The notes under the pieces are model-generated. The model saw nothing but the letters and a program-made list of their open reading frames with translations, was not told where the DNA came from and ran no database searches. Positions 1,936-44,190 of a stretch of 64,000 bases of DNA are shown here, piece by piece. The position numbers and the translations under genes were made by a program. How positions within the stretch are numbered: the first letter of the stretch is position 1; the number at the start of each line of letters is the position of its first letter. The stretch comes from Bacteroidetes bacterium CG12_big_fil_rev_8_21_14_0_65_60_17 (GTDB lineage Bacteria > Bacteroidota > Rhodothermia > Rhodothermales > UBA10348), in assembly GCA_002787815.1 (NCBI GenBank), contig PCUY01000062.1, forward strand, positions 7,323 through 71,322. Direction: 5' to 3'.

Positions 1936-3339
1936 TCAGAAGTCGAACCTCAGTCCCAGCAGCGGTTCAAAGCGGCGCTGTACCACAAATTGTTCCCGGC
2001 CTCCGGGTCCCGTGCCGGACGGCACGAACGTATACCGGGCCTCGGTCCGTGCCCAGAGGGCACCGCGGATGTTGTAGGTAAAGTCGAACACGAGCGCATT
2101 CTCGTCACCGGCCTCCCCGAAGAGGGAGAAGAATCCGTCCAGTCCCGCGCGATCCTGGCCTATGGACAATTCCAATCGCTCCAGGCGCAGGAACAGGCGG
2201 AGGTGGTATTCACTGAGGTCCTGCGTGCCATGGTGGCGCAGGAACTGGTACCAGAGCTCGAACCGCTGGAAAAAGTGTATCCGTAGTTCGGTCCAGACCG
2301 AGTTGTCGCGGAATACGAATTCGATGGGTACGCCGGCCAGGAATTCGTTGTCATCGCCGGGCAGTACAATACCGTCGCGTGTGGCGTCCGGATCGGCAAT
2401 CAGATTGGCGCGGCGACTTCGGACGGTGTAAAGGCTGCCGAAATAGCCGGGCTGGAACGCAGCCCCGTTGAAATGCAGGGCCAGGCGGAGTTGCAGTCGC
2501 GCAATGTCTATGAAGTTGTTGTTGATGAGATCGGCCCCGACGAGGACACCACGACCCATGGTCTGGATCTGGGCTACCGATGCGAACGGTTCGAAGGAGA
2601 ACGAACCGGCTTCAAATGCCGTCATGCGGGCATCGACTGACCAGGCCACGAGCGGGTCGCCGGCGCGGCCCGTGGCCGAGCGGTCCGTGAGCGCGGAGCC
2701 TGCCAGCCAGAGACTGGAGAGTCGGGAGGACTGCGCAAAGAACGGGCGAAAGGCCAGACGTCCTGCGAAAAGCCGGGACCGTGTCAGGTCTTCAACAATG
2801 ACCTGGGCCTGCACGCTGCGTTCACCGAACGATGCTTCAACGCCCGCCGACCGTGTATCCCAGGCGTTCTGCGTGGAAAAAAAATTGACCAGGTGGCCCA
2901 CTCCCAACCGGCTGCGGTCCAGGGGTCCGACACGGATGTACGTAGCCGAGTTCCGGGGTGTCCAGCGGGCGAAATCCACAATGCGGATGGCATCGCGCCA
3001 CTCATCAAAATCCTCTTCGAACGTGCCAAAGATTCCCGTCCGGGCCGCGGCATCGATCCGCAGGCTTGCCTGTGAGCGTTTGACGTGCGCCGCCAGGCGC
3101 GTAGCCCCTCGCCACTGGGGCCCGATCAGGGAAAAGCCTCCATACGCGGTTACACCCGCCTCGGTATCCCACCACGCCAGCGCATTGTATTCGGAGGGAT
3201 CATCGAGCGATCCGAATGTATGCGTCTGTGATGCAGCGGGAGCGGCCTGCAGGCCGAACACGCACACGCAGGCCGCGACGGCCGCTGCGACCGTGCGCGA
3301 CGGTACACCATCGATTCGGGGTGGGGTGGGATGCGTCAT
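1936..3339 (-). CDS. Hypothetical exported protein, probable outer-membrane beta-barrel
   Basis: Signal-peptide-like N-terminus (AAAVAACVCVFGLQAAPAASQ), amphipathic strand pattern, C-terminal LGLRFDF ending in Phe; start uncertain. Confidence 0.6.
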   Translation of the reverse strand: MTHPTPPRIDGVPSRTVAAAVAACVCVFGLQAAPAASQTHTFGSLDDPSEYNALAWWDTEAGVTAYGGFSLIGPQWRGATRLAAHVKRSQASLRIDAAARTGIFGTFEEDFDEWRDAIRIVDFARWTPRNSATYIRVGPLDRSRLGVGHLVNFFSTQNAWDTRSAGVEASFGERSVQAQVIVEDLTRSRLFAGRLAFRPFFAQSSRLSSLWLAGSALTDRSATGRAGDPLVAWSVDARMTAFEAGSFSFEPFASVAQIQTMGRGVLVGADLINNNFIDIARLQLRLALHFNGAAFQPGYFGSLYTVRSRRANLIADPDATRDGIVLPGDDNEFLAGVPIEFVFRDNSVWTELRIHFFQRFELWYQFLRHHGTQDLSEYHLRLFLRLERLELSIGQDRAGLDGFFSLFGEAGDENALVFDFTYNIRGALWARTEARYTFVPSGTGPGGREQFVVQRRFEPLLGLRFDF

Positions 3340-3411
3340 GTCGTGGGCAACAAGGATGCGTGAGCCGTGTTCAAACGGTTCCAAAATAGGGTTCAACACA
3401 ACGTACAAACC

Positions 3412-4050
3412 ATGCCGCTGACCGGCCTTCCGCTCTTTCCGCTCGATATCGTTCTTTTTCCGGACGAAGGGCTACCCCTGCACGTTTTCGAGGAGCGGTA
3501 CCGCCAGTTGCTGAAGGATTGTCTCAACGCGAACGTGCCGTTCGGTCTCATCCGGTATACCAACAGTACGTTTGAGGATGTGGGTTGTACGGCGCGAATC
3601 AAGGACGTGGTGGAGACGCATACTGACGGTTCGAGCGACATCATCGTGGTTGGAGAGGAACGATTCCGGCTCCTGGAGCTGCAGGGAAATCGGATGTACC
3701 GCACGGCCGACGTGGACATCGTGGCTGACGTTCCGGCCATCGTAAACGATGAGGAGCGGGAGCGCCTCGTGGCACAGCACATTAAACTGCTCGAGCTCGC
3801 AGGACGGATTCCCTCACCGAGTTCCTATGAGGACCGGGATCGGCTTTCCTACTTTGTGGGACGTAATGCCGGGCTCTCGGTAGATCAACGGCAGATGCTC
3901 CTCGAAATGCGAAACGAAGCCCAGCGTATCCATTACCTGGTCGGTCACCTGGAAGCTTTCATTCCGGCTGTCGAGGAGGCGGAAGACCTGAGACGGAAAA
4001 TTACATCCAATGGCCACTTCCCTGATTTTCCACTCCGGCACGATTTTTGA
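3412..4050 (+). CDS. Stand-alone LON substrate-binding (N-terminal) domain protein
   Basis: LPLFPLDIVLFPDEGLPLHVFEERYRQL, VGCTARI, GEERFRL; no AAA or protease domain. Confidence 0.88.
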   Translation: MPLTGLPLFPLDIVLFPDEGLPLHVFEERYRQLLKDCLNANVPFGLIRYTNSTFEDVGCTARIKDVVETHTDGSSDIIVVGEERFRLLELQGNRMYRTADVDIVADVPAIVNDEERERLVAQHIKLLELAGRIPSPSSYEDRDRLSYFVGRNAGLSVDQRQMLLEMRNEAQRIHYLVGHLEAFIPAVEEAEDLRRKITSNGHFPDFPLRHDF

Positions 4051-39646: not shown

Positions 39647-39798
39647 GAGCCGTAACCGAATCCGCACTGGTCCCGTGGGGTTCCCGAGTCGGAGAAACCC
39701 CTACAATGCTGGATGGACGAGCCGGAGTTGACTTAATGAAGGGTGCGCGTATTTTATCAGCCCGTAAACCGGATCGCCAACCAGACCGTCAGGTGATT

Positions 39799-41916
39799 AT
39801 GAAAGTATATGATGCAGATCACATCAGAAACGTGGCCCTCGTGGGGCACCAGGGCAGTGGAAAAACCATGCTGGCTGAATCCATGCTGTATGCTGCAGGT
39901 GGCCTGAAGCGCATGGGCAGTATAGAGGAAGGGACCACGATCAGCGATTACCACGCCAGTGAAAAGGAGCGCGGGATGTCGGTATTCGCATCGCTCCTGC
40001 ACGTTGAGTATCTGGGCAAGAAAATCAATGTGATGGATACGCCAGGTTATCCGGATTTCGTGAGTGAAGTTGCAGCTTCGTTGCATGTCACGGATTCGGC
40101 CCTTTTTGTCATCAACGCAGGGGAAGGTGTACAGGTAGGTACCGAACTGGCGTGGCGTTCGGCCGTGCGGCAGAATACGCCCTCCATGTTCGTCATCAAT
40201 CACCTGGACAAGTCCGACTCGAATTTCAGGGACGTCATTGCTCAGATAAAAGATCGATTCGGGCGCGGTGCTACCGTTGTGCAGATTCCTGGTGGATCCG
40301 GCAGTCGCTCCATCATTGATGTGCTTGTCATGAAGCAGATCACATTCGATGACCACGGCCGGATGACCCTTTCCGGGATCGACGCCGCGTTTGTCGATGA
40401 GGCGCAGCAGCTCCACAATGAACTGGTCGAAAACATTGCTGAGAATGATGAGAGTCTGATGGATCTGTATTTCGAAAAGGGTACGTTGACCGAAGACGAA
40501 ATGAGGGCCGGTTTACGCGAAGCCATGATTCGGCACCAGTTGTTTCCGATCTTCCTGACGAGCGCGACGAAGAACATTGGTGTTTCGCGCCTGATGGAAT
40601 TCGTCGGAAACGTATGCCCGACGCCCAATCAGATGCCGCCTGCACCGTTGGTCAACGGCGGGGCCATTGCGCCAGACTCGGGGGCGGAGCCTGTTGCACT
40701 CATTTACCACACGACGTCGGAAGCCCACGTCGGTGATTATTCGTTCTTCCGGATATACTCGGGAACGCTCGATACAGGCATGGACCTGGTAAATGCCGAG
40801 ACCGGTGTGACCGAGCGCCTCGGACAGATTTTTACGATCAACGGACATGATCGTGATCCGGTCGGAAAGATGTACGCGGGGGATCTTGGAGCACTCGTGA
40901 AGCTCAAGAATACGCATACCAACAACACATTGCACCTGAAGGGAAGCAAGGCCGTGGTTGAGCCCTTCGAGGTACCATCTCCCCGGTACTCTGTCGCTGT
41001 CGTCTCGGTACGCGATGGAGAGGAGGACAAGCTGGCAGCCGGGTTGCACCAGTTGCACGAAGAAGATCCTTCGCTGCAGATAACCCATGACCAGCTGCTC
41101 AGTCAGATCGTTTTGAGTGGTCAGGGAGAAATGCACCTCGAAATCGCAAAATACAGACTCAAAAACAGGTTCGGGGTCGACGTCGAGTTTATAAAGCCCA
41201 AGGTAGCATACCGGGAAACCATCCAGATGCAGGCCCGGGCAAAATATCGTCACAAGAAGCAGACGGGAGGTGCCGGTCAATTTGCGGATATATCCATGCT
41301 GATTGAGCCGCTCAATGGCGAATTCGTGCCGCCGGACGATATCAAGGTTCGAGGCGAACACACCGAAACTACCGCCTGGGGGTCTACCATTCATTTTGTA
41401 GATGCGATCGTGGGTGGCGTGATTGACATGCGCCGCTTTTTCGGAGCCATACAGAAAGGGGTGCTGGAGGTGTGTCAGCACGGCCCCGTGGCAGGGTATC
41501 CCGTCGGCGATGTCCGCGTCGTCATCTATGATGGGGGCATGCATCCTGTCGATTCAAACGAGGCGGCATTCAAGTCGGCGGCACGGGCATGTTTTCGGGA
41601 CGCGTTCCGACAGGCAAAGGCCGTCATGCTGGAGCCGGTGCATCATCTGGAAGTCCTGATCCCCGATTCTTATACGGGTGATATAATGGGAGACCTCAAT
41701 ACACGACGAGCGCGTATCCAGGGCATTGAGTCCGAAGGCCCGTTCCAGAAAGTTGTTGCCGATGCCCCGGAAGCGGAGCTCCACCGGTACTCCACGTCTC
41801 TGCGGTCCATGACCCAGGGTAGGGGGCTGCATCGATCCGAGTTTGCTGGTTACGAACCCATGCCCAGGCATGTACAGGATGAGATTGCATCGGCCGCTGT
41901 ACACGATGAAGAGTAG
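39799..41916 (+). CDS. fusA: Elongation factor G paralog (EF-G2 type)
   Basis: IRNVALVGHQGSGKT, DTPGYPDF, EEDPS, GQGEMHL, KKQTGGAGQF, HPVDSNE, LRSMTQGRG; not in the str operon; switch I RGMSV and G4 NHLD are non-canonical. Confidence 0.9.
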   Translation: MKVYDADHIRNVALVGHQGSGKTMLAESMLYAAGGLKRMGSIEEGTTISDYHASEKERGMSVFASLLHVEYLGKKINVMDTPGYPDFVSEVAASLHVTDSALFVINAGEGVQVGTELAWRSAVRQNTPSMFVINHLDKSDSNFRDVIAQIKDRFGRGATVVQIPGGSGSRSIIDVLVMKQITFDDHGRMTLSGIDAAFVDEAQQLHNELVENIAENDESLMDLYFEKGTLTEDEMRAGLREAMIRHQLFPIFLTSATKNIGVSRLMEFVGNVCPTPNQMPPAPLVNGGAIAPDSGAEPVALIYHTTSEAHVGDYSFFRIYSGTLDTGMDLVNAETGVTERLGQIFTINGHDRDPVGKMYAGDLGALVKLKNTHTNNTLHLKGSKAVVEPFEVPSPRYSVAVVSVRDGEEDKLAAGLHQLHEEDPSLQITHDQLLSQIVLSGQGEMHLEIAKYRLKNRFGVDVEFIKPKVAYRETIQMQARAKYRHKKQTGGAGQFADISMLIEPLNGEFVPPDDIKVRGEHTETTAWGSTIHFVDAIVGGVIDMRRFFGAIQKGVLEVCQHGPVAGYPVGDVRVVIYDGGMHPVDSNEAAFKSAARACFRDAFRQAKAVMLEPVHHLEVLIPDSYTGDIMGDLNTRRARIQGIESEGPFQKVVADAPEAELHRYSTSLRSMTQGRGLHRSEFAGYEPMPRHVQDEIASAAVHDEE

Positions 41917-41924
41917 GCCGCCCG

Positions 41925-42941
41925 GTGTCGCGTAAGGAAATTCTCCGTGGCGTCTACGAGGAGAACAGACGCATTGCGGAAAGCGGAGACCGGAAATCGA
42001 CAGCGGGGGACAGTCGCAGATTCGGGCCGGGAACGCTGGTGGTCGCAGCTGTTCTCCTGGCGGCGGTCGGCGTCGTGTTGTGGGACAATACGTCCCGCCA
42101 CGACGGAACGGAATCCAGTTCGTCGTCAACGTCGCCTGACGCCCGGTTTGAAATGGCCATTCCGGACGACCCGGGGCTGCGTGCGTTGGAATTACCGGAA
42201 GGCATGTCACTCGAGCAGTTGACCAGTTCGGCCGTTCCCATTGCTGATCTGTTTGATCTTGGTGTACGTACCATTATTATCGACGCCGGACATGGTGGGG
42301 TGGACAGTGGGGCCAGGTCCCGCATTGGACTCCAGGAGAAAGACATCACGCTCGATGTCGCGAAAAGGCTGTCAAGGCGTCTTGAGCGCTACGGCGTTTA
42401 TGACGTTCTGATGACGCGGGAGGCGGACTCGTCATTGACTCTTCGTCAACGCGTCGATTTTTCGAACAGCCAGGGAGCCGACATATTCGTGTCCATCCAC
42501 GTCAACTGGTTCCCATCGGATTCGGTCTATGCACTCGAGACGTACTATTTCGGTGGACAAGCCGATGCCGTCGCCCTGAGACTGGCTGAACGCGAGAACC
42601 GGAACTCGGATTACACCGTGGCTGAATTCAATCGTCTCATGTCACGGATGTCAGACCGGATGAAAGGAGAGGAGTCACGACGTCTTGCCCTGGCTGTACA
42701 ACGAAGCATGATTCGCAATACCCGCCGCGAGACGGGGCCGGTGGAAAATTGGGGGATCAAATCAGGTCCTTTCGTAGTGCTTGTTGGAACGGACGCCCCT
42801 GGCATCCTAGCTGAAATTGGTGTAATTAGTAATGGGCCTGAAGCGGAGCGTCTTGCGACGGTCGAATACCGGGAACGGTTGGCCCTCTACCTCGAAGAAG
42901 GGATTATCAATTATTTGAATCAAATGGCATCCAACGAGTAA
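41925..42941 (+). CDS. Membrane-anchored N-acetylmuramoyl-L-alanine amidase (Amidase_3, AmiA/B/C-like)
   Basis: TM LVVAAVLLAAVGVVLW; IIIDAGHGG, EKDITL, FVSIHVN, LAEIGVISN (Zn ligands and catalytic Glu); ALRLAERENR blocking helix. Confidence 0.92.
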   Translation: MSRKEILRGVYEENRRIAESGDRKSTAGDSRRFGPGTLVVAAVLLAAVGVVLWDNTSRHDGTESSSSSTSPDARFEMAIPDDPGLRALELPEGMSLEQLTSSAVPIADLFDLGVRTIIIDAGHGGVDSGARSRIGLQEKDITLDVAKRLSRRLERYGVYDVLMTREADSSLTLRQRVDFSNSQGADIFVSIHVNWFPSDSVYALETYYFGGQADAVALRLAERENRNSDYTVAEFNRLMSRMSDRMKGEESRRLALAVQRSMIRNTRRETGPVENWGIKSGPFVVLVGTDAPGILAEIGVISNGPEAERLATVEYRERLALYLEEGIINYLNQMASNE

Positions 42942-42943
42942 TT

Positions 42944-43984
42944 ATGGCTGCAGAAAAAAAGACTACTAAAAAGAAGGCATTGTCCAATGTCCTGTATATC
43001 GGGATGGATCTGGGTACGTCCCGAAGTGCCGTGGTAGCCAGCAATGGCAAGCGGGACTGGGTCCACAGCTATGTGGGATGGCCCAAGGATTTTGTTGCCC
43101 GTAAGCATTTGGGAAAGGATGTATTGTTCGGAGAGGAGGCGTTGGACAATCGGTTGTCCGTACACCTTTCCAGACCGCTCGAACAGGGGGTTATCCGGGA
43201 TGGTACTGTTCGGGACGAGGATGCTGTCCGGGAATTGGTGCATTATCTGATCGAGGCGGCAGCTCCCGGCGATTCGACTGAAGTGTATGCGGCCGTGGGT
43301 GTGCCCGCTGAAGCGCTTCGCGTCAACAAAATGGCCATCAGGGATGCCGTCAAAGAATATGCGGACAGGTTGATGGTCGTCTCGGAACCGTTTGCCATCG
43401 CGTATGGCATTGGCATTCTGAACAATGCGCTTGTGATTGACATCGGGGCGGGGACCATGGATTTCTGCATAATGCATGGCACCATGCCAACGGAGGAAGA
43501 TCAGCGCACACTGACCGTGGCTGGCGACTATATTGACAGGCACCTGCTCGATGTACTGTCGGAAAAGTATCCAAACGCCCGTTTTTCTGAACCCCTCATT
43601 CGCCAGGCAAAAGAGCAGGGAGCCTTTGTAGGGAGTGGTAAAAACAGGGTCAAGGTCAAAGTACCTGTGGACGGGGTGACGACTGAGCTCGACATTACAC
43701 CCGAAATGCAGCGGGTCTGCGCAAGTATCGTACCCGTCATAACGGAAGCCATGATGGACTTGATATCAGAATACGAACCTGATTTTCAGGATGAAGTAAA
43801 ACAGAATATCTATCTGGCAGGCGGGGGAAGTCAGATCCATGGATTGGACAAAGCACTTGTCGATGCGCTCAAGGACCATGGGTCGTTGAACGTGAAAGTA
43901 ATCGATGATCCGCTCTACGCCGGTGCAGAAGGTGCCCTGGCTCTGGCCCAGGACATGCCGGACGAATATTGGGAAGACATGTGA
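42944..43984 (+). CDS. Actin-like ATPase of the MamK subfamily
   Basis: IGMDLGTSRSAV, SYVGWPKD, GVPAEA, VVSEPFAIAYG, DIGAGTMDFC, AGDYID, QNIYLAGGGSQI, GALALAQDMPDEYW; these match recalled MamK signatures rather than MreB (DLGTANT/EPMAAAIG/DIGGGT). Confidence 0.85.
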   Translation: MAAEKKTTKKKALSNVLYIGMDLGTSRSAVVASNGKRDWVHSYVGWPKDFVARKHLGKDVLFGEEALDNRLSVHLSRPLEQGVIRDGTVRDEDAVRELVHYLIEAAAPGDSTEVYAAVGVPAEALRVNKMAIRDAVKEYADRLMVVSEPFAIAYGIGILNNALVIDIGAGTMDFCIMHGTMPTEEDQRTLTVAGDYIDRHLLDVLSEKYPNARFSEPLIRQAKEQGAFVGSGKNRVKVKVPVDGVTTELDITPEMQRVCASIVPVITEAMMDLISEYEPDFQDEVKQNIYLAGGGSQIHGLDKALVDALKDHGSLNVKVIDDPLYAGAEGALALAQDMPDEYWEDM

Positions 43985-44000
43985 CGTAGCCATTGAACAG

Positions 44001-44035
44001 ACAAAGCCCCGCTGGGTATTCCAACGGGGCTTTGT
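44001..44035. terminator. Bidirectional hairpin terminator between the actin gene and tRNA-Met
   Basis: ACAAAGCCCCG...CGGGGCTTTGT inverted repeat. Confidence 0.7.
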
Positions 44036-44108
44036 GGCGCGGGAGAGACTTGAACTCTCGACCTCCGGGTTATGAATCCGACGCTCTAACCACCTGAGCT
44101 ACCGCGCC
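44035..44108 (-). tRNA. tRNA-Met(CAT), elongator type
   Basis: Reverse complement GGCGCGGTAGCTCAGGTGGTTAGAGCGTCGGATTCATAACCCGGAGGTCGAGAGTTCAAGTCTCTCCCGCGCCA; G1-C72 paired so not initiator; Ile2 cannot be fully excluded. Confidence 0.93.
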
Positions 44109-44190
44109 TGATGTGGGCCGAAAATACGATGGCAGGGATCGCGGATCAACGCCCCATGGGGATCGGGGTTCTTTCTTCATTACAGTTTAT

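Follow-up and report, generated by a model that had tools for sequence, protein, structure and literature searches.

A MamK-family actin gene next to a membrane-anchored peptidoglycan amidase gene: a candidate two-gene module for organising cell wall cutting

Why should an actin-like ATPase of the MamK family be encoded directly behind a peptidoglycan amidase? We met this arrangement in a stretch of 64,000 nucleotides (nt) from Bacteroidetes bacterium CG12_big_fil_rev_8_21_14_0_65_60_17, a member of the Rhodothermales (contig PCUY01000062.1, positions 7,323 to 71,322 of the forward strand; the window hereafter). The analysis described here leads us to think that the two genes probably form one functional unit, in which a MamK-like polymer holds a bitopic amidase by a cytoplasmic helix and organises the cutting of the cell wall. 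The two genes, whose products we call the amidase and the actin, are as follows.

41925..42941, plus strand: amidase gene, GTG start, 338 amino acids (aa); bitopic Amidase_3 peptidoglycan amidase (open reading frame and Pfam PF01520)
42944..43984, plus strand: actin gene, ATG start, 346 aa; MamK-family actin-like ATPase of the amidase-linked clade (open reading frame, family scores, PDB match and tree)

Occurrence of the gene pair

Both open reading frames, and the junction TAA-TT-ATG that leaves 2 nt between the two genes on the same strand, are as an earlier sequence-only reading of the window had described them. That reading had built its proposal on the adjacency of the two genes, and the same adjacency is seen in other genomes, within the order and far beyond it.

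To survey the order we searched 41 related genomes with the actin and the amidase. The actin is present in 25 of these genomes, in one case split over two contigs, and no actin was found in the remaining 16. In 23 of the 25 actin loci the next gene upstream is the amidase, and the remaining two hold no upstream DNA. Counting as an amidase orthologue a match with E <= 2e-72 that aligns from residue 2-4, except at contig ends, we found one in 24 of the 25 actin-bearing genomes, always adjoining the actin; the actin of the 25th lies at a contig end. In all 16 actin-less genomes the amidase search yielded only paralogues of the catalytic domain (E >= 2.5e-31). With an orthologue in 24 of the 25 carriers and in none of the 16 other genomes, presence of one gene in this set goes with presence of the other, and absence with absence. 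Rhodothermaceae bacterium RA encodes an actin 64% identical to that of the window, and the pair is also found in several relatives whose genomes are single contigs. Across a sample of 301 genomes from the phylum the actin was found in only seven, all of the same order. On contig C91 of genome G002 the pair occurs twice (102544-104606 and 128965-131027), inverted and with identical scores; this genome is rated 6% contaminated, and the double pair may be either an assembly artefact or a real duplication.

For a wider search, which covered a single genome of each species, the query was an alignment of distantly related actins that contained no amidase sequence. From at least 406 stretches encoding an actin relative this gave a set of 80 loci, all of them nearer to the amidase-linked clade described below. 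An Amidase_3 gene is found directly upstream and on the same strand in 77 of the 80, with a gap of -7 to +149 nt between the amidase stop and the start of the actin match. The three exceptions are L111, which has no upstream DNA, L120, and L122, where a non-amidase gene stands upstream. The 80 loci come from Desulfobulbaceae, Nitrospirota/Thermodesulfovibrionales, Gammaproteobacteria, Rokubacteria, Gemmatimonadota, Acidobacteriota (Thermoanaerobaculia, Holophagales), Aminicenantes, Schekmanbacteria, Syntrophobacteraceae and Rhodothermales. The setting had earlier been taken to be Rhodothermota-like. For the host this stands, as proteins 80-98% identical to those of the locus are named as Rhodothermales by their sources, but the unit itself, spread over about ten phyla, is no peculiarity of Rhodothermota.

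When all open reading frames of the 80 loci were clustered, only the amidase and the actin proved to be common, the next real family occurring in 7 loci. Two other large clusters (78 loci, minus strand; 16 loci, Arg/Ala-rich frames) were taken, by their position and composition, to be out-of-frame shadows of the two genes. The surrounding genes vary by phylum, so that the amidase and the actin behave as a module of two genes complete in itself. A receiver-domain-like gene stands behind the actin in 7 of the 80 loci, namely at L055:7030-8184 and in six further loci of Nitrospirota or 'delta' origin.

The two proteins and their predicted contact

The amidase gene can be divided into the following parts.

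41934..41975, plus strand: conserved cytoplasmic helix motif K-E-I-L-R-G-V-Y-E-E-N-R-R-I (codons 4-17), the predicted actin-binding peptide
42030..42092, plus strand: predicted single membrane helix (codons 36-56), a signal anchor with the N-terminus inside (structure model and hydrophobicity)
42093..42260, plus strand: variable, low-confidence periplasmic linker (codons 57-112; model confidence and lack of conservation)
42261..42938, plus strand: catalytic domain with AmiA/B/C-type regulatory insert (codons 113-338; alignments)
42567-42605, plus strand: regulatory-insert helix (about residues 215-227; alignments, and a helix at 215-224 in the model)

The protein matches the Pfam Amidase_3 family PF01520 with 148.4 bits (cut-off 27), and in fold it comes closest to E. 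coli AmiA (8c2o; TM-score 0.85 on the target, Foldseek E 4e-19). The catalytic domain aligns in one stretch, insert included, with AmiA 8c2o (99.5 bits), Bartonella AmiB 3ne8 and AmiC 4bin. Among the insert-less CwlV-/AmiC2-type chains, 1jwq aligns only as far as the insert and 5emi in two pieces. The insert core, L-A-E-R-E-N, lines up with the corresponding segment of AmiA, and its residues A221, E224 and N225 are invariant in 20 aligned orthologues, as are H123, E138, H192 and E297 of the catalytic domain, which by homology would be the zinc and catalytic residues. On this evidence the amidase is of the regulated AmiA/B/C kind, and the claims of the sequence-only reading that it keeps its zinc ligands and the autoinhibitory helix agree with what the alignments and the model indicate. 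It falls below the NCBIfam equivalog cut-offs of AmiA (97.5 against 400 bits), AmiB and AmiC.

A structure model of the amidase has a confident catalytic domain and two N-terminal helices, at residues 3-22 and 36-56, of which the latter is hydrophobic; these correspond to the charged tail and the transmembrane helix that had been noticed in the sequence. The membrane segment consists of 21 uncharged residues with a Kyte-Doolittle mean of 2.3 and has R-R just before it. In 91 orthologues the hydrophobic segment has a median of 24 uncharged residues, the best 19-residue window has a median Kyte-Doolittle value of 2.15, and R-R stands immediately before the segment in 48. The basic residues ahead of the hydrophobic segment would fit a topology with the N-terminus in the cytoplasm. 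Residues 54-112 have a predicted local distance difference test (pLDDT) value below 50 in the model and are not conserved among the 20 orthologues.

The first 112 residues of the amidase are in fact unconserved in the orthologues save for residues 4-17. Within this short motif E12 and N14 are invariant, L7, Y11 and R16 are nearly so, and the consensus can be written as hydrophobic-L-R-x-V-Y-E-E/D-N. In the 20 orthologues the motif is followed by a variable basic linker, the hydrophobic helix and a variable periplasmic linker. Of the 71 N-termini from other phyla that could be read, 67 match a regular expression for the motif, 12-39 residues before the hydrophobic segment; the other four, together with one N-terminally cut frame, hold variants of the motif that can be recognised by eye, and the Asn is present in every complete N-terminus that was read. 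In the whole source genome the strict motif occurs once, in this amidase. A cytoplasmic peptide conserved on a periplasmic enzyme would call for a cytoplasmic partner.

In two orthologues, L019 and L026, the motif is repeated in tandem ahead of the membrane helix, giving two copies. At L122, a locus of a sister clade, the gene at 1956-2786 (plus strand) that precedes the actin (2796-4004) encodes a Glu/Gln/Leu-rich non-amidase of 276 aa, whose C-terminus has the motif-like sequence hydrophobic-L-x-x-L-F-E-A-N. This single case could be due to chance; it hints that the tail motif may be a portable docking peptide for the MamK-like actin family.

The actin scores 402.4 bits on the NCBIfam MamK model NF040964, a marginal result against the cut-off of 400, and its orthologues score about 394-423 bits, several of them just below that cut-off. 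On the BeeR model NF053558 it stays below the cut-off (219.2 against 530 bits), as it does on both NCBIfam MreB models (87.6 against 293 and 69.6 against 366 bits). Residues 14-345 align without a gap to residues 9-340 of Magnetospirillum MamK 5ljw (332 residues, 262 bits); among other solved structures the BeeR chain 8r2n gives 151 bits and MreB chains, one of which is also entered under 2wus, about 60. The likeness to MamK rather than MreB, which had first been recognised by motif, is thus borne out by the family model, the structure match and the tree. We rejected the identification of the actin as MreB on its score of 87.6 against 293 bits on the MreB model and the presence of a genuine MreB elsewhere in the genome. 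The ATP-binding motifs D22-L-G-T-S, S-E-P-F (E148), D166-I-G-A-G-T and G293-G-G-S are invariant in 20 actin orthologues. At its 5' end (42944-42990, plus strand) the gene encodes a Lys-rich extension of about 10-17 residues, seen in 20 aligned Rhodothermales orthologues, which is reminiscent of a membrane-binding tail or of the N-terminal disordered domain in BeeR.

We placed the actin in a quick IQ-TREE phylogeny of 118 rows, made up of 50%-identity representatives, the actins of 33 of the 80 cross-phylum loci and the Rhodothermales orthologues, with the source genome's own MreB as the outgroup. The sole stand-in for Magnetospirillum MamK in this tree is P0145 (508 bits on the MamK model and 463 on the PDB MamK). 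All amidase-linked actins, that of the window included, fall into one clade of 45 rows with a Shimodaira-Hasegawa-like approximate likelihood ratio test (SH-aLRT) support of 97, and the clade of 13 rows that holds P0145 (SH-aLRT 99) is separate from it. By this tree the window actin is a member of a separate, widely spread sister clade and not a typical magnetosome MamK. The branching inside the amidase-linked clade departs from the phyla, with Gammaproteobacteria beside Syntrophobacteraceae and a Rokubacteria row among Acidobacteriota, which suggests that the module has been transferred between lineages. Another tight clade, P0128-P0144, consists of proteins of 523-1232 aa with the MamK-like domain at the C-terminus, behind long regions rich in acidic residues, Ser, Lys and Pro. 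We considered these proteins as possible amidase fusions and rejected this, their N-terminal parts having neither a Pfam match nor the tail motif.

The source assembly (2.9 Mb, 95.5% complete) also allowed us to ask what else the genome holds. A true MreB is encoded on contig C51 (463 bits, Pfam model), and the genome also has MreC and two further Amidase_3 paralogues. The check proposed earlier, for a separate rod system elsewhere in the genome, has therefore found MreB and MreC, and with these and the two paralogues the amidase-actin pair is an extra system and not the rod machinery. Magnetosome genes were sought genome-wide with NCBIfam models. MamI gave no match, and this model found nothing in the control genomes either; the best MamP match reached 27.5 against 300 bits, that of MamQ, a LemA-type protein, 100.8 against 250, and those of MamO, HtrA-type proteases, 97.6 against 800. 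With all four models below cut-off in a 95.5%-complete genome, we rejected the idea that the actin is a displaced mamK of a magnetosome island, and the non-magnetosome setting proposed for this MamK-like protein is upheld for these four genes.

Does the cytoplasmic motif bind the actin? We predicted the complex from an alignment of the actin and an alignment of amidase residues 1-36, in three runs and with 3 controls. The interface score ipSAE was 0.82 in each of the three runs, and the best control gave 0.00; among solved complexes 58 of 80 attain the mark for this score, and among mismatched pairs 2 of 110, figures that apply here only approximately since we used alignments of our own. At least 74% of contacts are common to the runs, and the pLDDT of the partner is 62-67. 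On the amidase side the predicted interface covers residues 2-21, the closest pairs involving L7, V10, Y11 and N14. On the actin side it is formed by residues 129-133, 143-146 (a strand), 154, 159-160, 179-181 and the C-terminal segment 334-346. By homology we take this groove to be the cleft between subdomains IA and IIA, together with the C-terminal segment, that is used by ParR on ParM and by WH2 on actin.

The groove also differs between clades together with the motif. In clades with a V-Y-E-E/D-N motif the actin has N/D160, T180, M/I/V181, L334, M338 and Y342, and acidobacterial clades with an A-V-R/Q-E-N motif have L160, R180, Y181, I334, A338 and D342; the set of groove residues is different again in a third, small group (Gemmatimonadota, Schekmanbacteria). 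Fixed differences between the two large groups are enriched at the predicted interface, with 4 of 20 positions there and 10 of 310 elsewhere (one-sided Fisher p = 0.007, a value that kinship among the sequences causes to overstate the effect). This count left out L079, L093 and L118, which have aberrant or truncated C-termini, and three rows of the third group. The covariation is consistent with a contact and is not proof of one. Taken with the conserved motif and the modelled complex, it lends support to the earlier suggestion that the filament binds the cytoplasmic tail, and a direct contact between the tail helix and the actin groove is what the models predict.

What the pair may do

We propose that the amidase would sit in the inner membrane, its N-terminus facing the cytoplasm, and that a long flexible linker would carry its autoinhibited AmiA-type catalytic domain in the periplasm. 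The tail helix, with its invariant Asn, would dock into the groove of the MamK-like actin. ATP-dependent actin filaments could then collect the amidase, place it or shift it within the membrane, and the site of peptidoglycan cutting would be set from inside the cell. That the actin forms filaments, that these affect wall cleavage and that they localise wall hydrolysis is what we infer from the two proteins.

Several points weigh against this proposal. The R-R ahead of the hydrophobic segment in 48 of 91 orthologues means that a twin-arginine translocation (Tat) type signal, later cleaved, is possible, and Tat is the export route of E. coli AmiA and AmiC; cleavage of the amidase N-terminus would not, however, square easily with the conserved cytoplasmic motif. 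The score of the actin on the MamK model is only 2 bits over the cut-off, with several orthologues just under it. L120, which lies inside the clade, is without an amidase in the 246 nt of upstream DNA that its contig holds. The complex score is a measure of model confidence, to which solved structures of actin-fold proteins with a peptide in the cleft, such as ParM-ParR or actin-WH2, may have contributed in part. The covariation comes in essence from a single deep split, with a small third group besides. Finally, in ParM the groove also serves as a filament contact; if the same applied here, binding of the tail would be confined to monomers or filament ends, which would be a different mechanism.

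An alternative gives the tail another role. It could be a regulator or end-binding factor of the ParR, formin or capping-like kind, its motif binding monomers or filament ends and controlling assembly, with growing filaments pushing or spreading the amidase, or it could mark a pre-protein that is kept on the filament for export at chosen sites and then loses its signal by cleavage. We consider this improbable. The site predicted here corresponds to the ParR groove of ParM, which is reachable only at a filament end, and the tandem motifs of L019 and L026 would suit the end of a double-stranded filament. The pre-protein form could draw on the R-R sequences just discussed, but the hydrophobic segments are long and strongly hydrophobic (the medians of 24 and 2.15 given above) and thus more anchor-like than Tat-like.

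It is also possible, although we regard it as unlikely, that the roles are reversed, the bitopic amidase being an anchor to wall and membrane through which the filament positions an inclusion, an organelle, a chromosome region or a protein complex. Positioning of cytoplasmic organelles is the established role of MamK (PMC11929497). Magnetospirillum MamK keeps the groove residues T, V, L, L, P and Y (positions 180, 181, 334, 338, 339 and 342), so that the groove may be a general adaptor site, and the non-amidase upstream of the actin at L122 ends in a similar motif. Against such an arrangement, the catalytic residues and the regulatory insert are invariant, which would argue for an active, regulated enzyme over a mere anchor; the 80 loci hold no third conserved gene that might encode a cargo, and the strict motif is found in no other protein of the source genome.

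That the genes are merely co-transcribed neighbours without contact, or in a variant that the actin gene is simply a magnetosome mamK out of its usual place, we hold to be very improbable: adjacency by itself is no proof of binding, 7 of 44 blind-picked neighbours pass the same complex test (the method's calibration) and NCBI names the actin a MamK family member, but the pair is adjacent, co-present and co-absent across about ten phyla amid differing surroundings, a periplasmic enzyme carries a conserved cytoplasmic motif, the complex prediction stands at 0.82 against 0.00 for the controls, no magnetosome gene was found at cut-off and the clade of the actin is separate from that of the MamK stand-in P0145.

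The proposal that the filament holds and places the amidase can be set beside several known systems. The nearest described analogue is the bactofilin BacA with the M23 endopeptidase LmdC, for which clustered genes forming a conserved module, direct binding, and recruitment dependent on a conserved motif in the cytoplasmic part of the hydrolase are reported (Pohl et al., eLife 2024, PMC10945521). The clustering of a polymer gene with a hydrolase gene and the conserved cytoplasmic motif are common to both. BacA-LmdC combines a nucleotide-independent bactofilin, an M23 endopeptidase and a beta-hairpin motif, whereas here we have an actin-like ATPase, an Amidase_3 enzyme and a predicted helix. MreB-RodZ is a looser parallel, alike in joining an actin-like filament to a bitopic membrane protein. 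The cytoplasmic part of RodZ, a folded helix-turn-helix domain, binds the MreB filament and links the cytoskeleton to wall synthesis, and RodZ has no enzyme domain. In the pair described here, by contrast, the partner carries one, and the source genome has its own MreB and MreC elsewhere.

ParM-ParR serves plasmid segregation through a DNA-bound adaptor, a short terminal helix of ParR fitting into a hydrophobic cleft of ParM. The predicted interface between tail and actin would use the equivalent strand and C-terminal segment, but nothing in the amidase-actin unit suggests DNA. E. coli AmiA, AmiB and AmiC are soluble periplasmic enzymes with a cleaved signal plus a targeting domain. They share the catalytic fold of the window amidase, and their regulatory insert aligns with its own; unlike them it has no AMIN targeting domain and instead carries an N-terminal membrane anchor and a cytoplasmic motif.

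Magnetospirillum MamK (5ljw, 5ljv, 5jyg) resembles the window actin in its NCBIfam family, its ATP-binding motifs and the C-terminal sequence L-A-x-D/E-M/L-P-x-x-Y-W. The window actin differs in belonging to a separate clade, in the lack of magnetosome genes at cut-off in its genome and in its constant partner, which is a wall amidase and not a protein of the MamJ/MamY type. BeeR of Verrucomicrobiota is a MamK relative from non-magnetotactic bacteria whose function is unknown; it has a disordered N-terminal domain of 30-50 residues and forms a three-stranded tube (PMC11929497). The window actin reaches only 219 of the 530 bits required on the BeeR model, and no link to an amidase is reported for BeeR (PMC11929497).

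Our literature searches, with subscription journals and supplements outside their reach, found no paper that links the MamK family to an amidase and no description of the pair. The part of PMC10653835 available to us mentions no amidase, and that of 10.1101/682252 states, with reference to Lefevre et al. 2013, that some non-magnetotactic genomes contain MamK homologues. The pair would give a testable function to the many 'MamK family' genes annotated in such bacteria, and for magnetosome MamK it hints at a possible binding site for adaptors. Wall-cutting enzymes have to be confined in space, and known answers involve FtsZ/FtsEX-EnvC, MreB-RodZ and, recently, bactofilin-LmdC. The pair points to a fourth solution, widespread and compact, made of one actin-like ATPase and one bitopic amidase with a mutable 10-residue docking motif. 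It also offers a simple two-component system for studying the control of a periplasmic enzyme by a cytoplasmic polymer.

A broader idea, attractive and in our view doubtful, is that actins of the MamK branch serve widely, and perhaps did so originally, not to align magnetosomes but to keep hold of a membrane-anchored autolysin through a short helix in a barbed-end-type groove, and in this way pattern peptidoglycan cleavage from the cytoplasm in at least ten phyla. The helix in the groove would then be a general means of picking up clients, and magnetosome MamK, in which the groove residues are kept, a later recruitment.

Neighbouring features

Three features border the pair in the window.

39706-41916, plus strand: EF-G2-type paralogue (NCBIfam NF009381, 832 bits), 8 nt upstream of the amidase
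44001..44035, plus strand: hairpin 17 nt past the actin stop (RNA fold), a possible terminator shared with the converging tRNA-Met gene
44034-44108, minus strand: tRNA-Met (CAT) gene, converging on the actin gene and abutting the hairpin

The EF-G2-type gene is syntenic with the amidase in many Rhodothermales loci and not in other phyla. A terminator had been reported behind the pair. A strong hairpin is indeed present at 44001-44035, where the region has a folding energy of -37.8 kcal/mol (z -3.2), but its U-run is short and a scan for consensus terminators listed none after the actin gene, so the claim holds for the hairpin and less clearly for its function. Further downstream, the longest open reading frame of holB (GTG at 44113) begins only 5 nt from the tRNA-Met gene, and for this reason the true start of holB probably lies further in, near Met27.

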